A stretch of DNA of 64,000 nucleotides from Prorocentrum cordatum. Taxonomy: Eukaryota. Numbering within the stretch: position 1 is the first letter of the stretch; each line of letters starts with the position of its first letter. The stretch covers positions 248,001 through 312,000 of the forward strand of contig CAUYUJ010000325.1 of assembly GCA_963575745.1 (NCBI GenBank), written 5' to 3'. Shown one piece after another: positions 7,991 to 57,635 of the stretch. The notes under the pieces are model-generated. The model saw only the letters and a list, made by a program, of their open reading frames with translations. It did no database searches and had not been told where the DNA came from. A program made the position numbers and the translations under genes.

Positions 7991-8376
7991 GGGCCAGAAA
8001 ACAATCGACACCACCCCACCTACGGCCCCACGGGCCTGAGCATATACCGCGAATTCCGCTTGGGCTTTGCGGGGAACACGCTATGGCACCCGATGAGCCG
8101 TACTGTAACATGGAGAGCTATAGGTGGGATGGTGTTGTTTGTCGTTAGGTCGACCTTGCGTCTCCCGGAGACCCAGTGTCGGGGGAACTTACGCTCAGCG
8201 TGTCGCGGCGGCGGCCATGGCGACACACTACGCCCTGCGAGCGTATCGCGTGTCGCTCCGCTCCGCGGGGCGGGGGGAGCCTCGAAAGGCTCGGGACGCT
8301 GACGTTCGGGGACAGGGAAGTGGTCACCATGTCGCGCCGAGGCGTTGTGGGCCAGACCCAGCGGGGCGCTCCCAAA

Positions 8377-20390: not shown

Positions 20391-20449
20391 AGCCGCGTTG
20401 TTATGGAGCGCGTCCCGGAGGGGGTTGGCGGGCGGTTTGGCATTTGCGC

Positions 20450-39992: not shown

Positions 39993-40657
39993 GACACCTA
40001 CGACCCCGCGGTGCCCTAGGGGGAGGGGGCGGGCTTGACGGGCGAACCCCTCCGCGCGACCCCCGCGCCGTTCGCCCACCGACCGACTTATAGGGGAGGA
40101 GGGGGGGGAGGGGGGGTAGAAGGGGGAGAAGGAGGAGGAGGGGGGTAAGGAGGAGAAGGAGGAAGAGGAGGAGGAGGGGGAAGGGGGAGGAGGAGGAGAA
40201 GGAGGAGAAGGAGGACAAGGACGAGGATGAGGACGTCAAGGAGGTGGAGGAGGATGATGATGATGATGAAGCGCCTTGAAAGGTCGGTCCTCCCATAACA
40301 CAAACCTGAGAAGCCACCAATACGCCAAATGCGAAGGTAGAGAGAGAAAGAAGGCGAAGAAGCAGGAAAGAATAGAAGCGGAGAATAGGTAAAGCCCAAC
40401 CCAGGATTGAAACCCAGGATACTGAAAGAAAACATAAATGAAAGACTGTCCAAGATCCCAAATAAATCCCACCACTAGGTTCCTCTTGTGTTGAATGAAG
40501 ATAGAGAAACAGAAGAAAGGGATGCCCAAATTTGACTAACAAGATCTTGAGTGACAATTGGGTCCCAACTTTGAAAGCACATGGTCCCAAGGTCTAAAGT
40601 AAGAGGTGAAGAAAACTTTCATTAAGTCCCATGAAACCCATTTAACATGAGTAGTGA

Positions 40658-41077
40658 TCAAGGCTGATATATATGACTAAAAGAGAATCTGAATGATAAA
40701 CTGAACGACCCAAGCACGCAATGAAACCAGAAGATACGGAGGCACGCAAGATGAACGGTCAAAGCCGAATGAGATCCCAACCATGAGAACCCACGCCAGA
40801 CCTGTCGAGGAATATGTAATATGGATGAATTCAAACTAATATGGAGAACGCAAGGTGGCTGGAATTGTTTATAACCTTTTGTATTTGCAAACCACCATCG
40901 TAGGCGAGCCGCCGACGTTTGAACTGAAATGTCTGAGGGCCCTATCCCCAGGACATAAGAAATACATGCAAGAAAGACTGAGAAAGACTGAGAGCCCTCC
41001 AAGAAGCCGCAGGCCCACGCACCACGGACACCAGAAGATTCCAGTCTAAGGAAGTCCCAGGAGTGCTCTTCAGCCAT
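40658..41077 (-). CDS. Cargo ORF, 139 aa (MAEEHSWDFLRL...), unknown
   Basis: Its ATG overlaps the upstream ORF end (ATGGCTGA); shares F-x6-[IC]S-x2-L[GA]I-x2-S[DE]I with ORF 41819-42046. Confidence 0.5.
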   Translation of the reverse strand: MAEEHSWDFLRLESSGVRGAWACGFLEGSQSFSVFLACISYVLGIGPSDISVQTSAARLRWWFANTKGYKQFQPPCVLHISLNSSILHIPRQVWRGFSWLGSHSALTVHLACLRIFWFHCVLGSFSLSFRFSFSHIYQP

Positions 41078-41315
41078 ACCTCCACCGCCACTTCTCCACG
41101 AAGAAATCTCCATCCCACCAGTAATCGGACAAGTACCACACAACCGGGTGAGGCCACCCCGAATCGGGATCGATCCACGTGTCAAAGTACTCCGTTTTCC
41201 ACACTTTCGTGTAGACTTCGTCTACTTCGCAGTAGTTCCACATTCCGCCCGAGCCATGGGACCACTTGAGACGCTTCTTGGCAGCAAGCATGACTGGAAG
41301 GCAGCTTTTAGCCAT
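41070..41315 (-). CDS. Cargo ORF, 73-81 aa Trp-rich protein, homolog of gene A
   Basis: WNYCEVDEVYTKVWKTEYFDTWIDPDSGWPHPVVW..EKWRWRY aligns to gene A; preceded by SL relic 41368-41389. Confidence 0.75.
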   Translation of the reverse strand: MAKSCLPVMLAAKKRLKWSHGSGGMWNYCEVDEVYTKVWKTEYFDTWIDPDSGWPHPVVWYLSDYWWDGDFFVEKWRWRYG

Positions 41316-41367
41316 CCACTGGAGTTGAAAGTTCCCCAGCCGTACCAGACAGGAGCTCCAGAAAGGA

Positions 41368-41389
41368 TTTGAGGCAAAACGGCTACTGA
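41368..41389 (-). promoter_or_regulatory. Dinoflagellate spliced-leader relic / probable trans-splice acceptor
   Basis: TCAGTAGCCGTTTTGCCTCAAA matches TCCGTAGCCATTTTGGCTCAAG at 18/22; its TAG is the stop codon of ORF 41383-41709. Confidence 0.85.
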
Positions 41390-41709
41390 CCCGCAACAAA
41401 TTCTGTCCAAGGAACTCTACGAACCCTCTCATCGGGACCCCGAACGTTGACATACAGGCCATGATAGCCGCTGTCCCGGCAAGCTTTGAAGTGTGGGATT
41501 TTGCACCAGTCATATGTGAAATGAGGACCACCAAGGCCCGTCGGTATAAGAAGCCGAGCCGGCAACTTGACCACCCTTCGGAATAGTAGCGGGGAGCAGT
41601 ATGAAAGTGCCTCAAGATCCCGTTTAGATAGGAAGCAGACTTTGCGGTTAGACCTGCAAAGATTCCCCTGAAAGATAACGTAAGGATCCGAAACCGCGTG
41701 ATGTAACAT
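41383..41709 (-). CDS. Cargo ORF, 108 aa (MLHHAVSDPYVIFQG...TEFVAGQ), unknown
   Basis: Open frame; ATG lies just downstream of SL-like CTGCAGTCTCGGGCTCAAG (41736-41718). Confidence 0.55.
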   Translation of the reverse strand: MLHHAVSDPYVIFQGNLCRSNRKVCFLSKRDLEALSYCSPLLFRRVVKLPARLLIPTGLGGPHFTYDWCKIPHFKACRDSGYHGLYVNVRGPDERVRRVPWTEFVAGQ

Positions 41710-41818
41710 ACCGAAAGCTTGAGCCCGAGACTGCAGGAGCCGACAGGGGTCAAGTGGAGAGAAGGGGCCCATCCCTCCAAAGCCTAAGGGAGGTGAACAG
41801 ACGCCGAGGCCCAAGGAC

Positions 41819-42046
41819 TCAGAGGCTTCCCGAGGGGAGGAAAGGATTGTTGCGAAGCCACGGTACCCCTAAGAACATGTGGAGTGTGACGCATTTCTGT
41901 GGATTGTATGAACCCAAATTTACAGGAACGATCTCGGAACTTTCAATTGCCAGTGCACGTGAGCAGACGGATGCCCATGCCTCGAATACACAACACTGGA
42001 GAGATTTTGAATTCCATGGCCTGACGACCCTCTGAGGGGCAAGCAT
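41819..42046 (-). CDS. Cargo ORF, 75 aa (MLAPQRVVRPW...), unknown
   Basis: First ATG after SL relic 42103-42124; start context TCATGCTTGC is shared with the internal ATG at 41291 of the Trp-rich ORF. Confidence 0.5.
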   Translation of the reverse strand: MLAPQRVVRPWNSKSLQCCVFEAWASVCSRALAIESSEIVPVNLGSYNPQKCVTLHMFLGVPWLRNNPFLPSGSL

Positions 42047-42102
42047 GAGAGTGTGTTCCCAGATAACTTGAGAAGAGGTTGAAGCAAAACGAGGTAAGAC
42101 GG

Positions 42103-42124
42103 ATTGAACCAAAATGACTACAGA
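42103..42124 (-). promoter_or_regulatory. Dinoflagellate spliced-leader relic
   Basis: TCTGTAGTCATTTTGGTTCAAT matches the SL at 18/22; the three internal differences are all C>T. Confidence 0.85.
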
Positions 42125-42216
42125 AAAGCACCAGGACACCAAGACAATCGACAGATGGAGATCCAGGAGATGGGGAGACAGGGGTGTGAGGTACACTTTA
42201 TCAGGGATCGGACGGC

Positions 42217-42756
42217 AGTCATCGTCCTGGCCAACGTAGTGAGATTAACAATCCCAGGCCAAACCCATTTTGAACTGAAGTAAAGAAGCAAACTAAGCGC
42301 AAAGCAACCCCAAGTTGAAACTTGTCACGTCGAGGCTGTGGGAAATGAGCAAGAACCGACCCCACTACTTTGGCCCCGACAATCGGATTGAGAAGAGCAT
42401 GATGTAATCCCAGCTCATGAGAAATGACCTGAAGGCCCAATGAAATGAAGCACTTGTAATCCCCGATATTCCCAGATTGAACCAAGAGTCACCGTCCTGG
42501 CCAACGTAGTGAGATTAACAATCCCAGGCCAGACCCATTTAGAACTGAAGTGTAGAATCAAACTAAGCGCAAAGCAATCCCAAGTTGAAACTTGTCACGT
42601 CGAGGCTGTGGGCAAAGAGCAAGAATCGACCCCACTACTTTGGCCCCGACAATCGAATTGAGGAGAACATGATGTAATCCCAGCCCCAGAGAAATGACCT
42701 GAGTGCTCAATGAAATGAAGCACTTGTAATCCCATATATTCCCAGATTGAACCAAG
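42217..42756. repeat. Two tandem 270-bp direct repeats plus a partial third (also at 50924-51463)
   Basis: Copies at 42217-42486 and 42487-42756; each begins on the minus strand with SL-like CTTGGTTCAA and carries a ~75-90 codon frame lacking an ATG start. Confidence 0.9.
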
Positions 42757-42816
42757 AAATGAGCTGAGGGCCCAATGGAATGAAACACTTGAGCCGTATC
42801 TTCGGAACGATCTTGA

Positions 42817-43872
42817 TCACATCAGGAAGCGAGGTTTGCAAAGCAAATGGCACCTTACATTGGCCCCGTTACTCCCAGACTCCACCGTGATAAGATCTCC
42901 CACATCTTCAAACATATCCTTAATGAAGAGGAGGGCCACAATGCAGCTGCCAGCAAAGATCTGCGATTTGTCATGGGGCCTCTCCTGCTTTGGGCAGACC
43001 TCTGGGCCAATAAAGGCCTCTTTGGTGTAAAAGCGCGCATTGAACAAATGAATGTCCTTGAAACGAAATGTTTGGAGCCCAAAGTGCCAAAGAATCTTCG
43101 TGACATCCCTGGTAGTGAGGTATCCGTGCTCTCCCAAGACTGGAATGCTGTCTGAAACCAAGGGACCTTGATTATCAATGATGAAAGGCGTCAGCTCACG
43201 AACTGTGATGATTTGGAAATGTTCTCCAACCTTGGCCTTGAAGGTATTCAAACCCGTGAGCTGAGGTACGAAAACCATAATGTAACGCCTTGAGCTCGTG
43301 TGGTCTGTGCCGCCCTTCGGAGCGAATATTGGGCAGCCTGAGTGGTCGTGTTCCAACTGTGACTTGAACACAGGTGGGCCCAACTTGCTGATCCAGGGCT
43401 TCTTGTCCTGTTCCCAGCTTTTGGGAGCTGGTTGCGACCTCCTGTCAGGCGAGTCGACCTCCGCTTCAGATCCTGAGGTAGAGCCCCTGGTGTCTGAGCC
43501 CCCCGAAGACGGGGGGGAGTGCCTGACAGGCGCTTCCTCTCGGTAGTCCTGTGTCTCTGGCAAGGCCTCGTCCGGATCTGGCTTGGAAACCGACGCACCA
43601 CCCTGCAATTGTTTCTTGGACCCACCTGAGAACTGCATCTTCCTGGCAATCGGTGATCGGCTCCGAGACAAGGAGTCACCCCTGTGCACAGGTGCTGGAG
43701 GCGGGGTAGGGAGCACCCTGGACTCGCGAGAGTCAGCACCTGACGATGCTTTAGCCTTGAGGCCCTGATTCCTGATCTCGACCGTCCTCGCTTGGTCCTC
43801 CTTTTTCTGCTCGAGCTTCTTCTGCAGCTTGGCTTTCTTCTCATTCGTGGTAAGCACGGGCTTCGGCTCCAT
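42817..43872 (-). CDS. Cargo ORF, ~351 aa (MEPKPVLTTNEKKAKLQKKLEQKKEDQ...): Lys-rich coiled coil, disordered linker, globular C-terminal domain
   Basis: Long open frame immediately downstream of the RT stop and SL relic 44065-44080. Confidence 0.75.
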   Translation of the reverse strand: MEPKPVLTTNEKKAKLQKKLEQKKEDQARTVEIRNQGLKAKASSGADSRESRVLPTPPPAPVHRGDSLSRSRSPIARKMQFSGGSKKQLQGGASVSKPDPDEALPETQDYREEAPVRHSPPSSGGSDTRGSTSGSEAEVDSPDRRSQPAPKSWEQDKKPWISKLGPPVFKSQLEHDHSGCPIFAPKGGTDHTSSRRYIMVFVPQLTGLNTFKAKVGEHFQIITVRELTPFIIDNQGPLVSDSIPVLGEHGYLTTRDVTKILWHFGLQTFRFKDIHLFNARFYTKEAFIGPEVCPKQERPHDKSQIFAGSCIVALLFIKDMFEDVGDLITVESGSNGANVRCHLLCKPRFLM

Positions 43873-44064
43873 CTTATCAAAACGCTTCCGAGCCCAACAA
43901 TCCAAGGCGTGGCGATCGAATCCAAAGAAAAGAGGAACTGTCGGCTGAATCTGATTCCCAACCAAATCCAGATCCTGAGAGTAACAGGTGTCCGTGGTGA
44001 AAAGAAAGGTAGCCCCGCTGGGCGCAGTACGGTAACAAATGTGAGTCTGGATCACGCCAGACAA

Positions 44065-44080
44065 AGCCAATGGCTACTGA
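44065..44080 (-). promoter_or_regulatory. SL relic overlapping the RT stop codon (copy at ~52773-52788)
   Basis: TCAGTAGCCATTGGCT; the TAG at 44076-44074 terminates the RT ORF. Confidence 0.7.
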
Positions 44081-47006
44081 AGGCGAAGGTGAAGCGGTTG
44101 CCGAACCCAATCAAGCATTTCTTGAGCAAGACCCAAACGAAACTTTTTGTCCCGGGAGCCCTGAGGGGAGAATAAGGTGGTCCAGGCATCCTTGTCATAC
44201 CTGAAAACATATCCCCTATGCGAGCGTGAGTGGGTACGGCTGCCCCCAAAGTTATCAAAGGAGCGATTCTGAATGACCCAATGCTTGCAATATTGAAACA
44301 GCCTCGACGAAAAATCTTCTGGATGTCTTTGCATGTGTGAAACCCAACTAATAGCTGAATCCAAATGGAAAATAGCCCATGAAACATCTTTGTATCCCTT
44401 GGTTTTGCGATTTCTGCGTAAACTAAACTGTTCGGGAGATTCCCCCGGGAGCCTTTTGAGTTTCAACATGATCCTGATACATTGATTTTGAGCCTTGGTA
44501 ATCAAATCCGCCGTCGTCTTACAAGGGACCCAGGCAGCACCTCTGGAGCGGATAATCCCCCCCGCCATACAGTTAAGTTTTGAGAGACGTTTTGACATGG
44601 GGATCTGCTCGCTGATCAAGAACCTACTGTTAGCCCAAAAGGCTTTGTTAATCTGTGAAATACCCTGCTTGACATCTTCGTGACAGGATCCAGTGGCAGA
44701 GAGAATCGGACCCAACACCTTAGCCTCCGGTACAACAGACCAAGTTTTCCCAAAGGGATCGGACCAATTGTATCCTTGAAAGAAATAGGGGTAGGCCGGA
44801 AGGATTTCCCGATCGTCTTTGAGTTTGAGCCGATGTTCATTCCAGAGCTCCGACTCTACCAGTGCAGTCAGAGTTGCAAGGACTTGTTCCGAGGACGCCA
44901 CCACGAAGATATTATCTGACCAGCTGAGAAGGGCAATCCTGAAATCGAAGCCCAACTGCTCACAACGGATAGAGATTCCCAAAGAAGAATGGTGATTTTC
45001 TCCAGGGTGGAGGCGAAGCAATCTTCTACGGAAGCGCGCGCCAGTATGCATGCAGTCCCAGCTCCCTGCATCAACCCACGGTCTCTCTGGATAATCCCAG
45101 TGTTTGAGTCCAAAAGAGAGATGGAGACTCGAGGGTTCCTATGCAATCTGATGCAGCCAACTGTTAAAAAAGAGGGACTCCCCGTCCCAGTAGACTCCGC
45201 AGGACTAATCCATAACGAATCTGATCGTGGTGAGCTTTGATGTCAGTAATCCCAACCATTCTTTTGTTAAAATGATCTCGGCCGTATTCTAAAATGTGAT
45301 AGACACTGGTATGAAGTTCTTGTAATTGTCCACCTTTGCTGAGCCCAAAAATAAGACCTTTGAGACCTTTTGAATCAGTGTATGAATCCAAAACTGGCAG
45401 AATGGCCCTTGCCACATATGCGTGCCCGATCTTGGCAATTGCTGGCTGGGGAATGACAACTCTGGTTTGAGAGGGGGTTCCAAAACCCTTGATCTTGTTA
45501 CCCAGGTGGCCCCCGAATGTGACATCATTCCAAAATTCGGGATCGCCTAGGCAGGCCTGTATACACCCCGTGAGCCTCTGGGACCATCCCGAGGCTTTTA
45601 CTACCGCCGTACAGGCGAACTCTGTGTCGATCTTACGGGGTGCCTTGATGTTGTCCAGCGCGTCTTCCAGCAGGGAAGGAATGATGGGGTCGTTGTAGAA
45701 GTTGAAGAAACCCAAAGAGCGAAGCCAGGCGAAGTCCTCTTGCCGCTCCGATTCTGAGAGTCCCCACCTCTCGCTGTATTCTTCAGCCACCAGTTTGGTA
45801 CAGCGGTCCACTTCAAAAATCTTGACTTGATCTACACAGAAACCCAAAATGGGTAGGAGTGTCTTGCGGGAGGCCCAGACCTGTTTTCCTTGAGAGGCGT
45901 TGAGCGCAACCTGAGCCAAATCGCGTTGAAGTCTAGTTATTTTGAGAGCTTTCAAGAGGAGCTGACCCAATGAGACCCTCGTGGCTTCGTTAAGTTCGGA
46001 GTTGAACCGTGTCCTGAGACTCTTGACCCAAAATGGCTCTTCGGCAAATCTCCTAAAACTCCTTGGGGGAGCCTGAGTCGCTTCATAAACCTGGCCCAAC
46101 ATGTTCCCAGAAATCAAAGGAGAGGGTGAGGTCCCTTGGGTCATGATACCTGACCGCACATGAATCGGGCTGTTCTTCGTCATTTAAACGAATAAGTTCC
46201 GATGATTCGGGAAACAGACCTTGGGCGATCTTCCTAACCTCCAAAATGTTTGTAGGAGTCCACCTGAGAGGTCTCCTCTTACGCATCTGCTGGTGAAAGG
46301 CCAGCACATCACAGCCAACAAGAGCATGGTCCCCTGGGACGCCCGCCCAGCGGGCGAAACAATCAAAAGTGAGATCACTCCTGGCGAGAGCTATGTGATC
46401 GATCGTGCTGTTGGCCAGAGAGAGCGCCTGATCACCATCAGGCTTCCTAGTGAATTGCATGGAGGTCTCTTGGAACCTGAGAGGACACCAACGGAGATTG
46501 AGGCATGAACAAGCTTCACTGAATGATCGGAATTTCGGATCTCCGTTACCTTGATCGGCATTCATGTCCCCCAACCAAGAAAGAGTAGACCCCACGGGGC
46601 GGGATCGACCGAGTTGGATGGCACAGTTGAGAGAATCATGGAAAAAATCGTGGGCAAGATGAGAGAAGAGAAAGGATCTGGCATGATGGTGGCAACCATC
46701 GAGACAGTCGGGACGAAGATCAACACGGATAGATCTCCAATCGCAGACAATGTCTTTCACACGTTTTCTCAGAGACTTGTGCACAAGCACGCCCATGGCC
46801 CTACACCCAGGGCCAGAGTGATGGCGGTAGTAAGCGTGGCCATTGAAAACAGGGCGTAGTAGCCCATCGTTTTGAAGACAGCCCTTAAAATCCGCCTCTA
46901 AGATACAAATTAAGCCCCAGCACTTCAGCTCGAGCAAATCTAGGTTGGCTTGCATTTGAGTCTCGTCGGCCCTTTTACCCTGCACAGCTGAAACTCGAGA
47001 GGTCAT
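44074..47006 (-). mobile_element. Non-LTR retrotransposon APE endonuclease plus reverse transcriptase, copy 1 (about 3 apparent frameshifts)
   Basis: APE motifs CILEAD, GDMNA, TIDHI, GDH; RT motifs TRVVIPQPAIAK, FGLSKG, DIKAHHD, RGLMQG, LLSWSDNI, KVLG. Confidence 0.92.
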
Positions 47007-47644
47007 CGCAGTCCTAGTGCCTTGGCCTAATTACCACGTGCTTCTAACGCTTTGAGCGTCTCTACGGAAATGCACCTCGTCCAGAAAAAACTGTGGAGGT
47101 GCGTGGCAGGAGGAGGTGCCAGATGAGGAGGAAGAGGAAGTGGACCGATTCTAAAGTTCGCCTGCACAAGGCACGCGATTCGGGGCAGGGGATCGGGGGT
47201 GGGAAATAATTATTGGCGGCCCCTCTATTAGCAATAGTTTGTTCCGATGTTCGTATCCGCCTCGTATACACTTCTGCCCCATTCTTCCTCTCCCACCTCC
47301 TCTTCCTCCTCCCTCTCCTTCCCGTCCTCCTCCCGCCCTACCCTGCCCCTTATCCTCATTATTCCCCTTTTCCTTCCTCCTCCATCACTTCTTCGTCCTG
47401 CTCCCCCCCCTTCCTGCTCCTCTTCCTCCTTCTCTTGATCCTGCTCCTCCCCCCTCCTGGATGGGCCGCTGGGCAGGTGGCGCGAACGACGAGATGGGCC
47501 AGATGGAGGGGGCCCGCTGACGGTGAGAGGCACCGTCTCGCTTCCTCGCGCCAGCCGGCCTCGATGCTCGCTCCCCATGTCTCATTATCCTCCACATCCT
47601 CCTTCTCCTTCTCCTTCTGCAGGTCTCAATTGGGCGGCGGTCCT

Positions 47645-47930
47645 CTATGGCCGACGCTGGTTGCGCCGACGCCTGCGGCCCTGCTGCGCACCGCGCTTGG
47701 GCGGCGCGGCATAGAAATTCTTGGCCGTGCCCGAGTACCCGCACACGTTGAAGCAGCTGAACACTGTCTGCTCCAATCGCCTCCTATGGGCCCGCGACGC
47801 AGCCTGCCGCAGGGTAAGGTTCAACGTCTCATCCACAAACGTGGAATACCAAGACGGGTTGCCAAGATTCCAAGACCTGCGTTGAGCGCGAACCAACGTT
47901 ATGCAACCCCGCCAACCCCATACAAGGAGT
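47645..47930 (-). pseudogene. Possible C-terminal fragment of a DDE (CMC/Plavaka-like) transposase (copy at 56350-56635)
   Basis: LGNPSWYSTFVDETLNLTLRQAASRAHRRRLEQTVF resembles the GNP..Y...DE..N segment of such proteins; recalled similarity only. Confidence 0.3.
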
Positions 47931-48724
47931 AAACTAATAGCGTCAGATGGTTTCCTCCTTGGGGGAACGGTTCGCCCCCGCCCTCCCCCCCCGACATCTT
48001 GCGCCCGAAACTTTCCGCCCCTCTGCCTTTCTATCCCCCGCGCGTCGGCGCTTGGCCAGGCCAAGCGATGAAATCAAACTATTGAAGAAGTCTCAGGCGG
48101 GCGCCGAACTGGATCGCGAAGTAACTGCACCTTGCATGCCTACCGAATTTCTTCTCGCCCTCGCACGCGCGCGGGCGCCGTCCTATATCAGGCCCGTTAG
48201 GCCTGAGTTGGACCCCTACGAACCTCGACGCTTACTATTCATTTCGACCATATTCCCCCATCCCCCCCCCCCCTACTCCTCCTCCCCCCATCCGTCTCCC
48301 CCTCCTGCGCGTGGCCAGGCGGGGGCGCGCGCGGCGTTGGGGATATGCGACGCACTCGCGACCCATCCCCCCGCCCACCCCCTTCTCCCCCCCCCCCCCC
48401 CTCCCCCGCGGGAGAGGGGGGGCGGGGCGATGGCAGGAGGCGAAGGAGGAGGGGGTGGAGGAGAAGGGAAGAGGAGGGAAGGAAGGGGCAGATGAGGATA
48501 AGGAGAGGGAGGAGAAGATGAAGCGCGGGGGAAGTGGATGACGGGAAGGTGGAGGAAGCATGCGTTCCCCTCTCGAAATGGCACCCCGATCAGGTCCCCG
48601 AGCTCACCATCCTGCAGGCGCTTCGGCCGCTCGCTTTTTGCCTGCCGTGAGAACCCCCTCTCCCATCCCTCCCCTCTCCTCCTTCCTCCTCATTCCCTCT
48701 TCCCTCCTCCATCCACTATCTCTT

Positions 48725-48767
<43 letters not shown>

Positions 48768-48770
48768 TTT

Positions 48771-48786
48771 GTAGTCTCGGCTCGAG
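48771..48786 (+). promoter_or_regulatory. Polypyrimidine tract plus SL-like relic upstream of ORF1 (copy at 57476-57491)
   Basis: (CT)n-TTTTT then GTAGTCTCGGCTCGAG, close to the minus-arm relic GCAGTCTCGGGCTCAAG; 160 bp upstream of the ATG. Confidence 0.5.
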
Positions 48787-48930
48787 AGTACCCTGCACTC
48801 AGACCGCAGCCGCGACGCGAAGCGCCCCGCCTCGGAGTCAGACTCCCAGGCCTCGCGACACCGGAGGGGTCCCAGCAGGACCCTACTGATTCGCGTCACC
48901 TCTTCCCCCCCCGCCAGAGCGCCCGCCGCA

Positions 48931-50713
48931 ATGGCCCCCGCCAAGCCGGAGCGCCGTCGCTCTTCCAAGCGGCCGCCGAGCTCACGTCCTGCAGCTGAAG
49001 GGTCTCTCCTCCAACGCAAACAGGACTGCATTGCAGCTTTCAAGCAAGCGGGGTCTGACCGCCCCACGGCCGCATACAACGGGCTCGCCGAGCTGAACGC
49101 GGACGAGCTGCAGGCCACGTACGACATGCACAAGACCAACACAAAGAAGCTCGGCAGTGCCTTGATCCGCATGTGTGCCGCCAACCAGATTAGCTACACG
49201 CTGGATCACCACCAGCGCAGCAAGCCTAAGCGCAGTGGTGGTGACACATCTTACCCACCAGCTGCGTCCGCACGTCTTCAGGCTGCGGACGCCCAATTCA
49301 TTGCCTTGGACCCGGCCTTCTGGAAGGTCCCAGTCCTGGCCGAACCCACATCACTTGACGACGGCAAGACGTACAAGCCCAGCATCAGCCTCCACGACTA
49401 CGAGAGCGGTGAACGGCTGCTGCAGCACCACCTCGTGCAGGGTAAGCGTACCACGGGTCAGCTTGCGATTGCTGTCATGGGCCCAAAAAACGATAACTAC
49501 GTCGGTACCGAGCTCGCCGTCCCCGTGCTGAAGCGCACCCCAAGGCGCCCAAAGTGGTCCACACGCACGTCCCCGTGACCGTGTACCAGCTGGGCACCAA
49601 GGAAGTCGCCTGCACGGAAAAAGTAGCCGTCGCCACCATTGATCCTGCCGACCACGCATGCTGGATTCGGGTGACCATACATGAAACCGAAGCCATCGCC
49701 GCAGTCCCCTCCATGCATCAGGCCTTCGAGGATCAGTTTTCGGGAGGCGCCCCCGTGAACGGTGGTCCACGCGCCAAGGGTCCTTTCCGAGGGGATTCCG
49801 CTCCACAGGACAAGGCGCGCCAAAACCAAAAGCACAGGGAGTCCAAGAAAGACGCTCGCCGCCAGGAGCTCGATAGTCAGATCCAGGACACCTTCAAGGC
49901 CCTCTTCCACGGCAACTTTAAAGCCGTCACCATCCTCGAACCCTGCAAAAGCCTAGGCAGGTACGGATCGGGCGTCGGAAAGAGGTCCCTGGCTGCCACC
50001 TTCGGCGTCAGTCTTCAAGCGGTTGACAAGGTCTTGGCGGGTTCAGGGCAACTCGGCGCCACCTATGACCTCAGCAACGTAGGTGCAGACGAGCCCACTG
50101 CAGACAAGTACCAGACCGTGTGGTTCCCTGAGGACCAGCCCATCACGATGGCAGATGCGTTCCAGAAGTCGGTGGACTTCAAGGCCCTAGGAGTCGTCAG
50201 GCATGGCAAGTCAGGCTTATTGGGGATCCGTGTTGCACGAGGGTCAGACGCCGCCAAGGCTGCTGCCGTCAGCATCCGTGGCTGTGAAGCCACCCTCGCC
50301 AAGACGCGATACCGCATCACTGGCATTGCGGCACGCCACGCCACGCTGACCCAGCTCGCTAAGACTCTCACGGGCCCGTCCGTCAAATGGGACTGTGAGG
50401 TCTACCACGCCGCCTGGGACCCAGCCACTTCGGCTCAGTTTGCCTTAGTGCGCGCCCATCGTCCCCACCCACATATACGGTACAGGTCGCAGGGTGCCCC
50501 ATCCCGTGGAGCATCACCGAGGCCCCGTTGGCTGAGGTCGTGCCGAAGAGGGACAACGTTACCATTGTCACCCCTACAACTATCACAGAGCCTGTGACGC
50601 CGCCCGCCCGTGGTGGCGGCTTCAGCCCCGCCACGGGCACACTCCTAACCAAAGCGGCCCAGAGCCCCTACCTCCACGACCTCATGACTGCCACGCCAAA
50701 GGCAAGGGCGTCG
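48931..50713 (+). CDS. LINE ORF1/gag-like protein, copy 1 (two 1-nt frameshifts, truncated by the gap)
   Basis: Near-identical to 57636-59414. Confidence 0.65.
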
Positions 50714-50813
50714 NNNNNNNNNNNNNNNNNNNNNNNNNNNNNNNNNNNNNNNNNNNNNNNNNNNNNNNNNNNNNNNNNNNNNNNNNNNNNNNNNNNNNNN
50801 NNNNNNNNNNNNN
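50714..50813. other. Assembly gap, 100 N
   Basis: Directly visible. Confidence 1.
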
Positions 50814-51523
50814 AACCAAAATGACTACAGAAAAGCACCAGGACACCAAGACAATCGACAGATGGAGATCCAGGAGATGGGGAGACAGGGGTGAGAGGTA
50901 CACTTTATCAGGGATCGGACGGCAGTCATCGTCCTGGCCAACGTAGTGAGATTAACAATCCCAGGCCAAACCCATTTTGAACTGAAGTAAAGAAGCAAAC
51001 TAAGCGCAAAACAACCCCAAGTTGAAACTTGTCACGTCGAGGCTGTGGGAAAAGAGCAAGAACCGACCCCACTACTTTGGCCCCGACAATCGGATTGAGA
51101 AGAGCATGATGTAATCCCAGCTCATGAGAAATGACCTGAAGGCCCAATGAAATGAAGCACTTGTAATCCCCGATATTCCCAGATTGAACCAAGAGTCACC
51201 GTCCTGGCCAACGTAGTGAGATTAACAATCCCAGGCCAGACCCATTTAGAACTGAAGTGTAGAATCAAACTAAGCGCAAAGCAATCCCAAGTTGAAACTT
51301 GTCACGTCGAGGCTGTGGGCAAAGAGCAAGAATCGACCCCACTACTTTGGCCCCGACAATCGAATTGAGGAGAACATGATGTAATCCCAGCCCCAGAGAA
51401 ATGACCTGAGTGCTCAATGAAATGAAGCACTTGTAATCCCATATATTCCCAGATTGAACCAAGAAATGAGCTGAGGGCCCAATGGAATGAAACACTTGAG
51501 CCGTATCTTCGGAACGATCTTGA

Positions 51524-52580
51524 TCACATCAGGAAGCGAGGTTTGCAAAGCAAATGGCACCTTACATTGGCCCCGTTACTCCCAGACTCCACCGTGATAA
51601 GATCTCCCACATCTTCAAACATATCCTTAATGAAGAGGAGGGCCACAATGCAGCTGCCAGCAAAGATCTGCGATTTGTCATGGGGCCTCTCCTGCTTTGG
51701 GCAGACCTCTGGGCCAATAAAGGCCTCTTTGGTGTAAAAGCGCGCATTGAACAAATGAATGTCCTTGAAACGAAATGTTTGGAGCCCAAAGTGCCAAAGA
51801 ATCTTCGTGACATCCCTGGTAGTGAGGTATCCGTGCTCTCCCAAGACTGGAATGCTGTCTGAAACCAAGGGACCTTGATTATCAATGATGAAAGGCGTCA
51901 GCTCACGAACTGTGATGATTTGGAAATGTTCTCCAACCTTGGCCTTGAAGGTATTCAAACCCGTGAGCTGAGGTACGAAAACCATAATGTAACGCCTTGA
52001 GCTCGTGTGGTCTGTGCCGCCCTTCGGAGCGAATATTGGGCAGCCTGAGTGGTCGTATTCCAACTGTGACTTGAACACAGGTGGGCCCAACTTGCTGATC
52101 CAGGGCTTCTTGTCCTGTCCCCAGCTTTTGGGAGCTGGTTGCGACCTCCTGTCAGGCGAGTCGACCTCCGCTTCAGATCCTGAGGTAGAGCTCCTGGTGT
52201 CTGAGCCCCCCGAAGACGGGGGGGGAGTGCCTGACAGGCGCTTCCTCTCGGTAGTCCTGTGTCTCTGGCAAGGCCTCGTCCGGATCTGGCTTGGAAACCG
52301 ACGCACCACCCTGCAATTGTTTCTTGGACCCACCTGAGAACTGCATCTTCCTGGCAATCGGTGATCGGCTCCGAGACAAGGAGTCACCCCTGTGCACAGG
52401 TGCTGGAGGCGGGGTAGGGAGCACCCTGAACTCGCGAGAGTCAGCACCTGACGATGCTTTGGCCTTGAGGCCCTGATTCCTGATCTCGACCGTCCTCGCT
52501 TGGTCCTCCTTTTTCTGCTCGAGCTTCTTCTGCAGCTTGGCTTTCTTCTCATTCGTGGTAAGCACGGGCTTCGGCTCCAT
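51524..52580 (-). CDS. Second copy of the ~351-aa cargo ORF (extra base in a G run at ~52220)
   Basis: Near-identical to 42817-43872. Confidence 0.7.
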
Positions 52581-52781
52581 CTTATCAAAACGCTTCCGAG
52601 CCCAACAATCCAAGGCGTGGCGATCGAATCCAAAGAAAAGAGGAACTGTCGGCTGAATCTGATTCCCAACCAAATCCAGATCCTGAGAGTAACAGGTGTC
52701 CGTGGTGAAAAGAAAGGTAGCCCCGCTGGGCGCAGTACGGTAACAAATGTGAGTCTGGATCACGCCAGACAAAGCCAATGG

Positions 52782-55722
52782 CTACTGAAGGCGAAGGTGA
52801 AGCGGTTGCCGAACCCAATCAAGCATTTCTTGAGCAAGACCAAAACGAAACTTTTTGTCCCGGGAGCCCTGAGGGGAGAATAAGGTGGTCCAGGCATCCT
52901 TGTCATACCTGAAAACATATCCCCTATGCGAGCGAGAGAAGGTACGGCTGCCCCCAGAGTTATCAAAGGAGCGATTCTGAATGACCCAATGCTTGCAATA
53001 TTGAAACAGCCTCGACGAAAAATCTTCTGGATGTCTTTGCATGTGTGAAACCCAACTAATAGCTGAATCCAAATGAAAAATAGCCCAAGAAACATCTTTG
53101 TATCCCTTGGTTCTACGATTTCTGCGTAAACTAAACTGTTCGGGAGATTCCCCAGGGAGCCTTTTGAGTTTCAACATGATCCTGATACATTGATTTTGAG
53201 CCTTGGTAATCAAATCCGCCGTCGTCTTACAAGGGACCCAGGCAGCACCTCTGGAGCGGATAATCCCCCCCGCCATACAGTTAAGTTTTGAGAGACGTTT
53301 TGACATGGGGATCTGCTCGCTGATCAAGAACCTACTGTTAGCCCAAAAGGCTTTGTTAATCTGTGAAATACCCTGCTTGACATCTTCGTGACAGGATCCA
53401 GTGGCAGAGAGAATCGGACCCAACACCTTAGCCTCCGGTACAACAGACCAAGTTTTCCCAAAGGGATCGGACCAATTGTATCCTTGAAAGAAATAGGGGT
53501 AGGCCGGAAGGATTTCCCGATCGTCTTTGAGTTTGAGCCGATGTTCATTCCAGAGCTCCGACTCTACCAGTGCAGTCAGAGTTGCAAGGTCCTGTTCCGA
53601 GGACGCCACCACGAAGATATTATCTGACCAGCTGAGAAGGGCAATCCTGAAATTGAAGCCCAACTGCTCACAACGGATAGAGATTCCCAAAGAAGAATGG
53701 GTGATTTTCTCCAGGGGGGAGGCGAAGCAATCTTCTACGGAAACGCGCGCCAGTATGCATGCAGTCCCAGCTCCCTGCATCAACCCACGGTCTCTCTGGA
53801 TAATCCCAGTGTTTGAGTCCAAAAGAGAGATGAGACTCGAGGGTTCCTATGCAATCTGATGCAGCCAACTGCTAAGAAAAGAGGGACTCCCCGTCCCAGT
53901 AGACTCCGCAGGACTAATCCATAACGAATCTGATCGTGGTGAGCTTTGATGTCAGTAATCCCAACCATTCCTTTGTTAAAATGATCTCGGCCGTATTCTA
54001 AAATGTGATAGACACTGGTATGAAGTTCTTGTAATTGTCCACCTTTGCTGAGCCCAAAAATAAGACCTTTGAGACCTTTTGAATCAGTGTATGAATCCAA
54101 AACTGGCAGAATGGCCCTTGCCACATATGCGTGCCCGATCTTGGCAATTGCTGGCTGGGGAATGACATCTCTGGTTTGAGAGGGGTTCCAAAACCCTTGA
54201 TCTTGTTACCCAGGTGGCCCCCGAATGTGACATCATTCCAAAATTCGGGATCGCCTAAGCAGGCCTGTATACACCCCGTGAGCCTCTGGGACCATCCCGA
54301 GGCTTTTACTACCGCCGTACAGGCGAACTCTGTGTCGATCTTACGGGGTGCCTTGATGTTGTCCAGCGCGTCTTCCAGCAGGGAAGGAATGATGGGGTCG
54401 TTGTAGAAGTTGAAGAAACCCAAAGAGCGAAGCCAGGCGAAGTCCTCTTGCCGCTCCGATTCTGAGAGCCCCCACCTCTCGCTGTATTCTTCAGCCACCA
54501 GTTTGGTACAGCGGTCCACTTCAAAAACCTTGACTTGATCTACACAGAAACCCAAAATGGGTAGGAGTGTCTTGCGGGAGGCCCAGACCTGTTTTCCTTG
54601 AGAGGCGTTGAGCGCAACCTGAGCCAAATCGCGTTGAAGTTTAGTTATTTTGAGAGCTTTCAAGAGGAGCTGACCCAATGAGACCCTCGTGGCTTCGTTA
54701 AGTTCGGAGTTGAACCGCGTCCTGAGACTCTTGACCCAAAATGGCTCTTCGGCAAATCTCCTAAAACTCCTTGGGAGAGCCTGAGTCGCTTCATAAACCT
54801 GGCCCAACATGTTTTCCCAGAAATCAAAGGAGAGGGTGAGGTCCCTTGGGTCATGATACCTGACCGCACATGAATCGGGCTGTTCTTCGCCATTTAAACG
54901 AATAAGTTCCGATGGTTCGGGAAACAGACCTTGGGCGATCTTCCTAACCTCCAAAATGTTTGTAGGAGTCCACATGTGAGGTCTCTTCTTACGCATCTGC
55001 TGGTGAAAGGCCAGCACATCACAGCCAACAAGAGCATGGTCCCCTGGGACGCCCGCCCAGCGGGCGAAACAATCAAAAGTGAGATCACTCCTGGCGAGAG
55101 CTATGTGATCGATCGTGCTGTTGGCCTGAGAGAGCGCCTGATCACCATCAGGCTTCCTAGTGAATTGCATGGAGGTCTCTTGGAACCTGAGAGGACACCA
55201 ACGGAGATTGAGGCATGAACAAGCTTCACTGAATGATCGGAATTTCGGATCTCCGTTACCTTGATCGGCATTCATGTCCCCCAACCAAGAAAGAGTAGAC
55301 CCCACGGGGCGGGATCGACCGAGTTGGATGGCACAGTTGAGAGAATCATGGAAAAAATCGTGGGCAATATGAGAGAAGAGAAAGGATCTGGCATGATGGT
55401 GGCAACCATCGAGACAGTCGGGACGAAGATCAACACGGATAGATCTCCAATCGCAGACAATGTCTTTCACACGTTTTCTCAGAGATTTGTGCACAAGCAC
55501 GCCCATGGCCCTACACCCAGGGCCAGAGTGATGGCGGTAGTAAGCGCGGCCATTGAAAACAGGGCGTAGTAGCCCATCGTTTTGAAGACAGCCCTTAAAA
55601 TCCGCCTCTAAGATACAAATTAAGCCCCAGCACTTCAGCTCGAGCAAATCTAGGTTGGCTTGCATTTGAGTCTCGTCGGCCCATTTACCCTGCACATTGA
55701 GTGCACATACGAGACCCCTCAC
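52782..55722 (-). mobile_element. APE endonuclease plus RT, copy 2 (consensus ~980 aa)
   Basis: N-terminal APE motif LVCALNVQG is intact; frameshifts at ~54180 and ~53830 differ in position from those of copy 1. Confidence 0.92.
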
Positions 55723-57429
55723 GTGAGCATCTCAAAGAGATAGTGCTTCGTCGATTGTGTCTTTGAGCGTCTTACGGAGCGCTTCGTCGGGAGGTGGAGG
55801 TGCGTGGAGGAGGAGGTGCCAGAGGAGGAGGAAGAGGAGGTGGACGTATTCTATAAGTTCGCCTGCCACAGGCACGCGATCGGGGCAGGGGCATCGGGGG
55901 CTGGGAAATAATTATCTGGCGGCCCCCCTCTATTATGCAACAGTCCGCCATCCTGGTCAGGGCGCCTCGTATACACTTCTGCCCCATTCTTCCTCTCCCA
56001 CCTCCTCTTCCTCCTCCCTCTCCTTCCCGTCCTCCTCCCGCCCTACCCTGCCCCTTATCCTCATTATTCCCCTTTTCCTTCCTCCTCCATCACTTCTTCG
56101 TCCTGCTCCCCCCCCTTCCTGCTCCTCTTCCTCCTTCTCTTGATCCTGCTCCTCCCCCCTCCTGGATGGGCCGCTGGGCAGGTGGCGCGAACGACGAGAT
56201 GGGCCAGATGGAGGGGGCCCGCTGACGGTGAGAGGCACCGTCTCGCTTCCTCGCGCCAGCCGGCCTCGATGCTCGCTCCCCATGTCTCATTATCCTCCAC
56301 ATCCTCCTTCTCCTTCTCCTTCTGCAGGTCTCAATTGGGCGGCGGTCCTCTATGGCCGACGCTGGTTGCGCCGACGCCTGCGGCCCTGCTGCGCACCGCG
56401 CTTGGGCGGCGCGGCATAGAAATTCTTGGCCGTGCCCGAGTACCCGCACACGTTGAAGCAGCTGAACACTGTCTGCTCCAATCGCCTCCTATGGGCCCGC
56501 GACGCAGCCTGCCGCAGGGTAAGGTTCAACGTCTCATCCACAAACGTGGAATACCAAGACGGGTTGCCAAGATTCCAAGACCTGCGTTGAGCGCGAACCA
56601 ACGTTATGCAACCCCGCCAACCCCATACAAGGAGTAAACTAATAGCGTCAGATGGTTTCCTCCTTGGGGGAACGGTTCGCCCCCGCCCTCCCCCCCCGAC
56701 ATCTTGCGCCCGAAACTTTCCGCCCCTCTGCCTTTCTATCCCCCGCGCGTCGGCGCTTGGCCAGGCCAAGCGATGAAATCAAACTATTGAAGAAGTCTCA
56801 GGCGGGCGCCGAACTGGATCGCGAAGTAACTGCACCTTGCATGCCTACCGAATTTCTTCTCGCCCTCGCACGCGCGCGGGCGCCGTCCTATATCAGGCCC
56901 GTTAGGCCTGAGTTGGACCCCTACGAACCTCGACGCTTACTATTCATTTCGACCATATTCCCCCATCCCCCCCCCCCCTACTCCTCCTCCCCCCATCCGT
57001 CTCCCCCTCCTGCGCGTGGCCAGGCGGGGGCGCGCGCGGCGTTGGGGATATGCGACGCACTCGCGACCCATCCCCCCGCCCACCCCCTTCTCCCCCCCCC
57101 CCCCCCTCCCCCGCGGGAGAGGGGGGGCGGGGCGATGGCAGGAGGCGAAGGAGGAGGGGGTGGAGGAGAAGGGAAGAGGAGGGAAGGAAGGGGCAGATGA
57201 GGATAAGGAGAGGGAGGAGAAGATGAAGCGCGGGGGAAGTGGATGACGGGAAGGTGGAGGAAGCATGCGTTCCCCTCTCGAAATGGCACCCCGATCAGGT
57301 CCCCGAGCTCACCATCCTGCAGGCGCTTCGGCCGCTCGCTTTTTGCCTGCCGTGAGAACCCCCTCTCCCATCCCTCCCCTCTCCTCCTTCCTCCTCATTC
57401 CCTCTTCCCTCCTCCATCCACTATCTCTT

Positions 57430-57472
<43 letters not shown>

Positions 57473-57635
57473 TTTGTAGTCTCGGCTCGAGAGTACCCTG
57501 CACTCAGACCGCAGCCGCGACGCGAAGCGCCCCGCCTCGGAGTCAGACTCCCAGGCCTCGCGACACCGGAGGGGTCCCAGCAGGACCCTACTGATTCGCG
57601 TCACCTCTTCCCCCCCCGCCAGAGCGCCCGCCGCA

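Follow-up and report, generated by a model that had tools for sequence, protein, structure and literature searches.

Spliced-leader relics at the internal ORF boundaries of a high-copy LINE composite in Prorocentrum cordatum: stop codons in probable retroposition scars

Dinoflagellate genomes are full of leader-tagged retrocopies, and the machinery that makes them is poorly known, as is the way in which retroelement genes are expressed in an all-trans-spliced cell. Such "recycled cDNAs" with relicts of the dinoflagellate spliced leader (DinoSL) go back to Slamovits and Keeling (2008), as described in passages of PMC6050394, PMC3229502 and PMC12014239, and a genomic survey of DinoSL relicts was carried out by Song et al. 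(2017; PMC5585692), a section of which sets the minimum for a relict at an exact 9-mer of the 22-nt DinoSL, located on the same strand as an ORF and no more than 500 bp upstream of it. According to passages of PMC12014239, PMC3229502 and PMC5585692, the AG of GTAG (nt 6-7) in a genomic SL relic is the site of re-splicing. In the sections of the DinoSL relict literature that we consulted, no mention was found of a relic supplying a stop codon. The locus described here resembles these DinoSL retrogenes in that 22-nt leader DNA copies precede same-strand ORFs at 5'-UTR distance (here 55-201 nt), and in the relic AG at nt 6-7, the re-splicing site given in those passages. On the other hand, its relics are found inside one repeated unit and abut the preceding ORF, of which the relic TAG is the stop, and the units are retroelement ORFs and not host genes.

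Two further systems are close. Our locus shares with APE-type LINEs (nearest solved: R2 and human L1 ORF2p) an ORF2 with a putative endonuclease (EN), reverse transcriptase (RT) and C-terminal domain, a high copy number and simple-repeat flanks. Unlike them, it has an SL relic in place of an upstream ORF1, RT motif C reads SWSDN instead of xADD, no 3' UTR separates ORF2 from the next block, and ~3.8 kb with three further ORFs follow ORF2. Operons without intercistronic DNA are known in Ciona intestinalis, where they are resolved by SL trans-splicing (PMC1488885), and the minor SL1-type operons of Caenorhabditis elegans are cited in a passage of that paper as the same class. As in Ciona, the boundary here has zero length, with the putative acceptor AG at the very end of the upstream cistron. 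However, the Ciona cistron keeps a 3' UTR and receives poly(A) at the AG, whereas here the AG lies inside the stop codon.

Chimeric retrocopies arise by RT template switching, such as L1/U6 chimeras and the end-to-end template jumping of the R2 RT. These are likewise head-to-tail joins of different RNAs without poly(A) at internal joins, but the joins observed here are at SL 5' ends and the composite itself has been amplified to high copy. In-frame stops between retroelement ORFs are found in MLV (gag-UAG-pol readthrough) and SART1 (UAAUG stop-start coupling). Here too, a single in-frame TAG separates two ORFs, with a candidate start located 2 nt past the stop in a relative; however, no stimulatory structure was found, the register is not conserved, and the RT comes first and the accessory ORF follows. 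Finally, SLACS, CZAR and CRE (trypanosomatids) and NeSL-1 (nematodes) are SL-gene-specific retrotransposons inserted in SL RNA genes. Our element also adjoins SL sequence, but a different sequence follows each SL block and no SL intron is present.

Layout of the composite repeat

In the window, which is the whole 64-kb stretch of P. cordatum DNA that was analysed, we identified a ~6.8-kb low-GC, high-copy composite repeat amid TCC-type simple repeats. Its order is a worn SL relic, LINE ORF2 (EN-like and RT), a TAG, an SL-like block, an ORF of 351/418 codons, two 270-bp repeats, an SL relic, the remnant of a ~200-aa ORF, a second TAG, an SL relic and an 81-codon Trp-rich ORF. The features are as follows.

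47050 to 47068, minus strand: worn SL relic marking the 5' end of LINE copy 1 (first 7 nt of DinoSL exact, 5 unrelated nt, CTCAAAG)
44074 to 47030, minus strand: LINE ORF2 copy 1 (endonuclease-like N-terminus, RT, conserved C-terminal domain)
46022 to 46040, minus strand: SL-like 17-mer inside ORF2 (16/17 to SL nt 6-22), read E-P-F-W-V-K
44074 to 44076, minus strand: TAG ending ORF2; the 418-codon frame opens at the next base, in the same frame
44059 to 44080, minus strand: SL-like block TCAGTAGCCATTGGCTTTGTCT (exact 9-mer of DinoSL nt 4-12, marginal at full length)
42817 to 44073, minus strand: 418-codon open frame (351 aa from the ATG at 43872), no family assigned
42217 to 42757, no strand: a 270-271-bp unit in two tandem copies that are 92% alike
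42103 to 42124, minus strand: SL relic TCTGTAGTCATTTTGGTTCAAT (18/22)
41383 to 41868, minus strand: 161-codon frame ending VAGQ and TAG (41385-41383)
41368 to 41389, minus strand: strong SL relic TCAGTAGCCGTTTTGCCTCAAA (18/22)
41070 to 41315, minus strand: 81-codon Trp-rich ORF, starting 67 nt past the AG of the 41389 relic
40095 to 40254, no strand: (GGA)n on the plus strand, that is (TCC)n on the element strand, 53 units; downstream flank of the low-GC block
50714 to 50813, no strand: 100-N assembly gap between the two copies
52760 to 55775, minus strand: LINE ORF2 copy 2, which likewise ends in an SL-like junction (TCAGTAGCC at 52788-52780)

TCC/CTT-rich sequence also flanks the block upstream (about 47100-47300), and no target-site duplication was identified at the element in the window. 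Copy 2 belongs to an 8.6-kb tandem duplication (42107-50713 versus 50814-59414, 97.7% identity), whose alignment stops at the assembly gap at both ends.

A family profile (A4) matched R2 proteins of solved structure at E=1.6e-10 and human L1 ORF2p at E=2-4e-7, and the relative P0074 contains RVT_1 (E=1.2e-21) plus Exo_endo_phos. By these sequence matches, which include an RT domain, ORF2 is a non-LTR reverse transcriptase. No Pfam endonuclease was detected in the window ORF itself; from residue 8 on, copy 2 can be aligned to P0021 across EN and linker (E=6e-19), and Exo_endo_phos was found in the distant members P0074 (31.9 bits) and P0082 (19.4 bits), only the former passing the cut-off. Pfam searches gave nothing usable for nine window ORFs at E<=0.01 or for five at E<=10 and no match for the relatives P0001 and P0002, and neither two window ORFs (phmmer) nor a profile of the C-terminal domain (A1) matched any protein in PDB. 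The "RT ORF" of the first-pass annotation does end at TAG 44076-44074, but it is only one of three frames over which the ORF2 of copy 1 is split, with frameshifts near 46100-46180, 45140-45240 and 44900-45000. In copy 2, EN, linker and the N-terminus of RT occupy a single 577-codon frame and the downstream ORF is frameshifted. ORF2 is frameshifted in both copies, differently, and the window copies need not be expressed at all. The tail of ORF2 after the anchor column has 12 aa, within the family range of 8-27, so ORF2 is not truncated and the join lies at its natural end.

Only one or two close homologues were found for each downstream ORF. The homologue of the 351-aa ORF, P0154 (420 aa), is 73% identical to it, with 84% identity over the C-terminal 217 aa, and covers also the 66 codons before the window ATG. 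As the downstream ORFs are open in relatives and the C-terminal domain is more conserved, they are or were probably expressed. AlphaFold2 on the C-terminal 217 aa (2-row alignment) gave a mean pLDDT of 36.8, an unusable model. The second ORF, presented in the first-pass annotation as 108 aa long, does end in VAGQ, but counted from its first ATG it has 129 aa, and from stop to stop 161 codons. It is what remains, at the C-terminal end, of a ~200-aa ORF that is conserved in P0152 and P0153. No family was found for the 81-codon ORF. Pfam yielded no match for P0152, P0153, P0154, P0160 or two small ORFs, and Atlas yielded no usable match for the 351-aa ORF or P0152.

SL-like blocks and the stop codons within them

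Four SL-like 19-mers were present in the window against 0.01 expected, and a score of at least 30 was reached in none of 100 simulations. The four SL-like blocks at 47068, 44080, 42124 and 41389 are on one strand, and an ATG opening at least 60 codons lies 55-201 nt past each, so that each block is on the same strand as an ORF and within 500 bp upstream of it. Past the AG of the 47068 relic, which has a comparable block in copy 2, the first long-ORF ATG follows after 55 nt. The TAG of the 42124 relic closes a 68-codon open frame, and a 75-codon ATG frame starts 71 nt past its AG. The sequences after the four blocks are mutually unrelated and each runs into an ORF, with no SL intron; the blocks are thus mRNA-derived leaders, and insertion into an SL RNA gene was rejected for these differing flanks. 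No A-run was found directly upstream of any of the three junctions.

Both ORF ends singled out by the first-pass annotation were borne out by sequence and translation: TAG 44076-44074, the stop of the RT-like ORF, and TAG 41385-41383, the stop of the second ORF, fall within TCAGTAGCC on the minus strand. The first junction reads CTTCAGTAGCCATTGGCT (translation ending DWVRQPLHLRLQ, then stop) and is followed directly 3' of the TAG by CCATTGGCT; the second reads GGTCAGTAGCCGTTTTGCC (ending VPWTEFVAGQ, then stop) and is followed by CCGTTTTGCC. TCAGTAGCC occurs three times in the window, always on the minus strand (0.31 expected; three reached in 0/100 shuffles), and since the third site (52788-52780) is in copy 2 of the tandem duplication, only two occurrences are independent. 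An SL origin for both ends, as had been claimed, is well founded at 41389 (18/22) but marginal at 44080, where SL nt 1-12 match at 11/12 positions before a 2-nt gap and only 12/22 positions match ungapped.

The C>A change common to the two junctions had been taken as the mark of an element-specific signal. However, SL position 3 differs in 3/4 relics (C, A, T, A), and the shared change is no evidence for a dedicated signal, as simpler readings exist: the A may come from the CAG TAG with which the upstream ORF itself ends, and not from a mutated SL. What stands of the proposed compact intercistronic signal is that both TAGs occupy nt 5-7 of SL-like blocks and that a further ORF follows each; the shared C>A lends it no support. 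On these sequence grounds, a dual role of the TAG as stop and acceptor is plausible, though unproven, and the junction blocks may also mark where the mRNA of the next gene is excised.

Stop positions are the same in close relatives. All nine close ORF2 relatives end in SLSQ at the same residue as the window ORF2, and both relatives of the second ORF end in GQ at the same residue, so the stops do not fall elsewhere in close homologues, an outcome that had been named as contrary to the proposed signal; all these protein ends are Gln. Recent nonsense mutation as the source of the in-frame TAG was rejected because 9/9 ORF2 relatives end there. A common C-terminus is ordinary at 60-70% identity, and it is silent on the DNA past the stop. 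The 7-aa tail of ORF2 differs by subfamily (PLHLRLQ versus xPxSLSQ), with Gln last in both, and distant ORF2 relatives end elsewhere, with tails of 8-27 aa. Pattern searches based on the closer alignment (A2) gave 204 pattern matches but no relative in metagenome contigs, and the same kind of search gave 17 matches but no relative in viral contigs. The 16-mer of the window junction occurs at 119 loci in metagenome contigs; none resembles the element in blastn or tblastn comparisons, and all are thus chance matches.

Origin and possible use of the junctions

The junction is real and curious, and it is probably a retroposition scar. In our best explanation, the host SL, copied into DNA, would stand before every cistron (ORF2, the 351/418-codon ORF, the ~200-aa ORF and the 81-codon ORF), and each SL block would be a scar, the 5' end of a reverse-transcribed SL-capped RNA whose copy was joined straight to the end of the preceding cistron, without poly(A) or 3' UTR. 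The absence of poly(A) points to template jumping, and the most likely route would be a template jump of the LINE reverse transcriptase at the SL 5' end, perhaps helped by micro-homology between SL nt 2-7 (CCGTAG) and the ORF end CAGTAG. The stop would be the TAG of SL nt 5-7 unless the ORF contributed a TAG itself, two cases that the sequence cannot distinguish, and it would have been retained as any stop codon would be. Because relic SLs are re-spliced at the same AG according to the published accounts, it is probably through shorter SL-capped mRNAs, excised at the relic AGs, that the downstream ORFs are expressed. Such mRNAs would be an alternative to the full-length RNA, which would be both the message for ORF2 and the template of retrotransposition. 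With an origin by joining at SL ends, the dual use of the TAG would be a by-product and not a purpose-built signal. Whether the composite was built in this way from joined SL-capped RNAs, with the TAG used twice by accident and downstream mRNAs cut out at the relics, we judge to be an even call.

In the tandem arrays of Amphidinium, a 3' UTR of 42-143 nt and a spacer of 85-982 nt separate stop and acceptor (PMC2488372), so that a zero-length junction would be abnormal for dinoflagellate mRNA processing, a point against our explanation. One rival explanation takes the junction as a selected, element-specific signal, in which one TAG terminates the upstream ORF and at the same time provides the trans-splice acceptor for the downstream one in a polycistronic retroelement RNA. 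The Ciona operons, in which the G of the AG acceptor receives the poly(A) (PMC1488885), show that a zero-length boundary is workable, and stop positions are fixed across subfamilies with only 63-67% identity. Furthermore, pyrimidines make up 75% of the 20 nt that precede the 44080 block, and these close with CAG, as a splice site would, and the PLHLRLQ and xPxSLSQ tails both consist of residues with pyrimidine-rich codons and end in Gln. However, the pyrimidine fraction upstream of the second junction is only 0.40, the distant ORF2 relatives stop elsewhere, conservation of a stop codon requires no second function, and the dinoflagellate acceptor is an AG without consensus, for which SL sequence is unneeded (PMC2488372). 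We consider a selected signal fairly unlikely. A broader variant, which we regard as unlikely, would make the LINE a true polycistronic retroelement: its full-length RNA would encode ORF2, SL motifs on its stops would yield trans-spliced sub-length mRNAs for the three accessory ORFs, in analogy to the spliced env mRNA of retroviruses but made by SL trans-splicing, and SL homology would guide RT jumps by which composites are built as well as reshuffled.

The block at 44080 might also be a coincidence, ORF2 ending in CAG TAG and its 3' UTR opening with a dozen SL-like bases, so that only 41389 and 42124 would be true relics. Its full-length SL score is indeed at background level (23.5, reached in 9/100 simulations, with background sites of the window at 23-24), and the 17-mer inside ORF2 (46022-46040), which by its sequence is a conserved linker peptide and not a cistron boundary, indicates that SL-like strings here need not be boundaries. 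But the block contains an exact SL 9-mer, the relict minimum given in the section of PMC5585692 cited above, has 9 bases in common with a strong relic and is located at an ORF boundary of a unit whose other boundaries bear clear relics, which makes coincidence quite improbable. A translational reading of the first junction is very unlikely. It rests on a feature missed in the first-pass annotation: ORF2 and the 418-codon ORF are in one frame, parted by a single TAG and then C, and the downstream ORF could be made by TAG readthrough as a fusion or by termination-reinitiation just after the stop. Neither copy has a change of frame at the TAG, the 66-codon stretch that leads up to the first window ATG is open and conserved in P0154, and the start of P0154 (MGSVW) maps to ATT GGC TTT GTC TGG in the window, 2 bases past the TAG. 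Nevertheless, no stable RNA structure follows the TAG (MFE -21.6 versus a shuffle mean of -22.85, z=+0.42; 132/200 shuffles fold at least as well), the first 7 codons of P0154 are in a different register, so that the in-frame arrangement is not shared, at the 41385 junction the downstream ORF lies in another frame, and a same frame has a 1-in-3 chance. Highly improbable in our view is a head-to-tail LINE boundary, at which a second SL-capped LINE would have inserted behind the first, at its 3' end, and contributed the post-junction ORF as ORF1. The hexamer found three times in the ORF2 3' tail (CCGCTT CACCTT CGCCTT) is like a simple-repeat LINE tail, and in the downstream ORF a globular C-terminus comes after an N-terminus rich in Lys and Glu. 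But no second ORF2 follows (tblastn with P0021 and P0160 found only the two known copies), an unusual 3'-truncated LINE would be needed, diverged copies have the junction in common, and no ORF1-type family or fold is assignable to the downstream ORF.

If the junctions are scars of joined SL-capped RNAs, a high-copy LINE with an SL copy at every internal ORF boundary would offer a concrete model for the chaining of leader-capped RNAs, and the composite yields a prediction testable in RNA, namely that a retroelement uses host trans-splicing for sub-length mRNAs. For annotation, ORFs that end on an SL-relic TAG without 3' UTR should be suspected to be element cistrons and not ordinary genes.

Comparison of contigs from sequencing runs indicated that the whole 41000-47100 stretch is a polymorphic high-copy repeat (4/4 runs). 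Summed contig depth was higher in the 3' half of ORF2 than in the next ORF, depth being unfit for ranking parts. Among the loose contig ends listed, none is at 44076 or 41385, which has no bearing on the boundaries. The 44076 junction itself was bridged by contigs with 0, 6 and 5 differences.

Two stop/SL junctions in a composite repeat

Both ORFs that the first-pass annotation had placed on a TAG within a shared junction sequence were found to end there. On the minus strand, the first junction reads ...CGCCTTCAGTAGCCATTGGCT, in which TAG 44076-44074 terminates the ORF2 frame (...DWVRQPLHLRLQ*), and the second reads ...GCGGGTCAGTAGCCGTTTTGCC, in which TAG 41385-41383 terminates a frame reading ...VPWTEFVAGQ*. 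At both junctions the TAG corresponds to nt 5-7 of the dinoflagellate spliced leader (SL; 22 nt, given as DCCGTAGCCATTTTGGCTCAAG in PMC6050394 and PMC12014239), and an A-run just upstream is absent at every junction. The string TCAGTAGCC occurs three times in the window, always on the minus strand (expected 0.31; three were reached in 0 of 100 shuffles). The third site (52788-52780) duplicates the first junction within a tandem duplication (42107-50713 versus 50814-59414, 97.7% identity), whose alignment stops at both ends at a 100-N assembly gap (50714-50813). Thus, the independent junctions number two, not three.

The junctions lie in a low-GC block from ~47300 to 40290, flanked on both sides by TCC/CTT-type simple repeats.

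Features of the composite repeat, in order along the minus strand
47068-47050, minus: worn SL relic (degraded genomic copy of the SL), 5' end of the LINE
after the 47068 relic, minus: ORF2
44080, minus: TAG and SL-like block
directly after TAG 44074, minus: 418-codon frame
between the 418-codon frame and the 42124 relic: two 270-bp repeats
42124, minus: SL relic
between the 42124 and 41389 relics, minus: small frames, including one of 161 codons (the second ORF)
41389, minus: TAG and SL relic
after the 41389 relic, minus: 81-codon Trp-rich ORF
40095-40254: (GGA)53 simple repeat, downstream flank

Downstream of every SL block, 55, 201, 71 and 67 nt past the respective AG, lies an ATG that opens 60 codons or more. 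When contigs of four runs were aligned to 41000-47100 at ≥90% identity, 1186, 598, 397 and 265 short contigs were placed per run, across the 99+, 95-99 and 90-95% classes, and 30, 30, 30 and 29 of 30 bins were covered; a polymorphic multi-copy family extends over the entire stretch and takes in the accessory ORFs. Two contigs bridge the 44076 junction with at least 31 letters on each side (43939-44112, 6 differences; 43907-44112, 5 differences), and another (43973-44088, 0 differences) nearly does, with only 12 letters past the TAG, so this junction is common to diverged copies. Upstream of the LINE, within the tandem duplication, 47500-50700 and 56200-59400 are GC-rich (0.6-0.75) and Pro/Ser-rich low-complexity, with plus-strand ORFs of 267 and 366 codons that have no Pfam match.

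The SL 19-mer was found with at most three mismatches at four places, all on the minus strand (41386, 42121, 46040 and 54748; expected 0.01), the last duplicating the match at 46040. These sites score 30 in local alignment to the SL, and 44080 and its duplicate score 23.5, in the tier of background sites of the window (24.0 at ~7940, minus; 23.0 at 23041, plus). When the 7-kb element strand was simulated with a first-order Markov model, scores of at least 23.5 arose in 9/100 simulations and of at least 30 in 0/100. Without gaps, 18/22 positions agree with the SL at both 41389 and 42124, 12/22 at 44080 and 9/22 at 47068. The 44080 block contains an exact 9-mer (SL nt 4-12), and an exact SL 9-mer is the operational relict criterion in Song et al., 2017 (PMC5585692). 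Judged by likeness, the 41389 block is surely an SL relic and the 44080 block probably one.

SL position 3 reads C, A, T and A in the blocks at 47068, 44080, 42124 and 41389, and is altered in three of the four. The C>T is consistent with CpG decay. For the two C>A changes, the source could be a modified base close to the SL cap that reverse transcriptase (RT) misread, or the upstream ORF could have supplied the A; alternatively, the position may simply be variable in these blocks. The shared C>A, previously read as a mark of an element-specific signal, is for these last two reasons a weak pointer to one.

Identity and C-termini of the ORFs

None of the window ORFs matched a Pfam family, and the PDB sequence search with two of them gave no match. 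The in-frame C-terminal 306 aa of the RT-like ORF served as query in an exhaustive HMMER search, which returned 237 proteins at E<=0.001, 48 of them at E<=1e-10. Domain scans of ten long members identified RVT_1 (77.8 bits, E=1.2e-21) together with Exo_endo_phos (31.9 bits) in P0074 (987 aa), and the others gave three sub-threshold RVT_1 matches, one sub-threshold endonuclease match and, in five cases, nothing. A profile of 15 long members, with P0160 (~61% identity to the window) as its first row, matched R2 (E=1.6e-10) and human LINE-1 ORF2p (E=2-4e-7) among solved proteins. The relatives P0002 and P0160 span continuously the three separate frames of copy 1; copy 2 has a 577-codon unbroken EN-linker-RT frame, other frameshifts and a broken downstream ORF. 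RT motif C reads SWSDN/WADN. ORF2 is a decayed LINE ORF2. Its 5' UTR and first codons (46987-47100 versus 55690-55800, minus) diverge strongly between the 97.7%-identical copies, and the version in contigs of 4/4 runs is that of copy 2 (with a loose end at 46986), so copy 1 has a replaced patch, perhaps from conversion by another family member.

The second ORF had been described as 108 aa long; this length holds from the ATG chosen then, and the frame measures 129 aa from its first ATG and 161 codons stop-to-stop. To judge from two homologues, P0152 (199 aa, 67% identity) and P0153 (141 aa, 64%), it is real and conserved. Its in-frame remainder in the window is the C-terminal part only, and at 41874|41875 contigs of 4/4 runs carry extra sequence, absent from the window, that probably encodes the N-terminus seen in P0152. 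The ORF downstream of the first junction (351 aa from its ATG; 418 codons stop-to-stop) has one close homologue, P0154 (420 aa, 73% identity), with 84% identity over its C-terminal 217 aa, and this uneven conservation argues for a selected protein. Searches and structure prediction yielded no family, Atlas neighbour or usable fold for it.

Twelve close ORF2 relatives, from the clusters of P0001, P0003 and P0002, were all read. The nine that reach the C-terminus end ...WVRQxPxSLSQ (P0002, P0003 and P0163 end before it and lie outside this count), and the window ORF2 (...WVRQPLHLRLQ) has the same length and a terminal Gln. Both homologues of the second ORF end ...GQ at its final residue. Among 19 sequences of distant ORF2 relatives reaching the last conserved block, the tail past the anchor column varies from 8 to 27 aa (12 in the window) and the last residue is L (5), Q (3), E (3), S (3), D (2), P (2) or A (1). 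Stops lying elsewhere in homologues, which had been named as evidence against a shared signal, were therefore seen among distant ORF2 relatives and not among close ones (same residue in 9/9 and 2/2). The stops are fixed in close subfamilies and variable over the wider LINE family; at 60-70% identity, a common C-terminus is nothing unusual.

The six sense codons that lead up to the CAG of ORF2 (44081-44098, minus) consist of three repeats of one hexamer (CCGCTT, CACCTT, CGCCTT). The residues of this 7-aa tail differ from the xPxSLSQ of the related subfamily, but both tails consist of residues whose codons are pyrimidine-rich; the ORF2 tail may be a polypyrimidine tract, or else a simple-repeat 3' end that is translated.

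Origin and possible use of the junctions

As far as sequence can tell, it is most likely that the junction is a retroposition scar, which incidentally set the stop and probably gives an acceptor. Since the ORF2 C-terminus is complete and neither 3' UTR nor poly(A) precedes the next SL block, the join lies where the upstream cistron naturally ends. Non-LTR RTs jump between templates, and L1 chimeras are known. The simplest origin would be that, as reverse transcription proceeded, the 5' end of an SL-capped RNA was joined to the end of the RNA before it, guided by micro-homology of SL nt 2-7 to an ORF that ends in CAGTAG. Such micro-homology would explain why the joins fall on stop codons and why CAG, not CCG, stands at both junctions and CTG at the 42124 block; the junction A need not then have arisen by mutation of the SL.

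The TAG could also be a selected dual stop/acceptor signal, a less likely reading. According to PMC12014239, PMC3229502 and PMC5585692, relics are re-spliced at the AG of SL nt 6-7, with loss of the first seven bases. Since nt 5-7 of the SL make up the relic TAG, the earlier proposal follows the standard relic model in its acceptor half; the new element would be that the same TAG doubles as the upstream stop. The accessory ORFs are open in relatives and so must be, or have been, expressed, and expression in dinoflagellates means gaining the SL at an upstream AG, for which the relic AG is the documented site. Trans-splicing at the TAG would, however, ruin that molecule as an ORF2 mRNA, and a 3' UTR does not fit behind ORF2. 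Stop and next acceptor in Amphidinium arrays are separated by a 42-143-nt 3' UTR and an 85-982 nt spacer; poly(A) is added there at an A-run, and the acceptor is an AG without consensus (PMC2488372). Either the two uses would fall on different molecules (full-length RNA and sub-length mRNAs), or processing would resemble that of Ciona, where the acceptor AG is polyadenylated at its G (PMC1488885).

At the first junction, readthrough or stop-start coupling producing the downstream ORF is a rival, because the 418-codon frame starts at the base after the TAG in the frame of ORF2 (...LRLQ*PLALSGVIQTH...) and the P0154 N-terminus (MGSVWCFQTH) is colinear with window bases from two after the TAG. 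However, P0154 is in a different register (one base, before QTH), RNA structure after the TAG shows no excess (z=+0.42), and the second junction is out of frame with its downstream ORF.

The junction, preferably read as a scar, is a variation on DinoSL relics and LINEs, both known. In the available portions of the literature on DinoSL relics and trans-splicing (PMC6050394, PMC12014239, PMC3229502, PMC1488885, PMC2488372, PMC5585692), we found neither an SL relic acting as an upstream stop nor a dinoflagellate LINE of several ORFs whose boundaries carry SL copies.

Other SL-like and low-GC sequences in the window

The SL-like 17-mer at 46022-46040 (minus; copy at 54730-54748, minus) matches SL nt 6-22 at 16/17 positions. 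It was rejected as a cistron boundary because it is internal to ORF2 and encodes EPFWVK, which aligns with EPFAIK in P0021 and EPWLIK in P0073, two distant full-length relatives. Of 13 collected proteins of at least 550 aa, 2 contain the motif EP[FW]x[IV]KxLRxR. Either the SL likeness of the 17-mer is a remarkable coincidence, or an SL captured long ago has turned coding between EN and RT.

A second low-GC island (0.50-0.54) lies at 20000-24000 within GC-rich background and may be another element. At 7900-7995, a long, nearly perfect inverted repeat, with arms of ~40 nt that hold the weak SL-like string TCCGTCGACGCATTTTG and a short centre, looks like a hairpin-forming small element.
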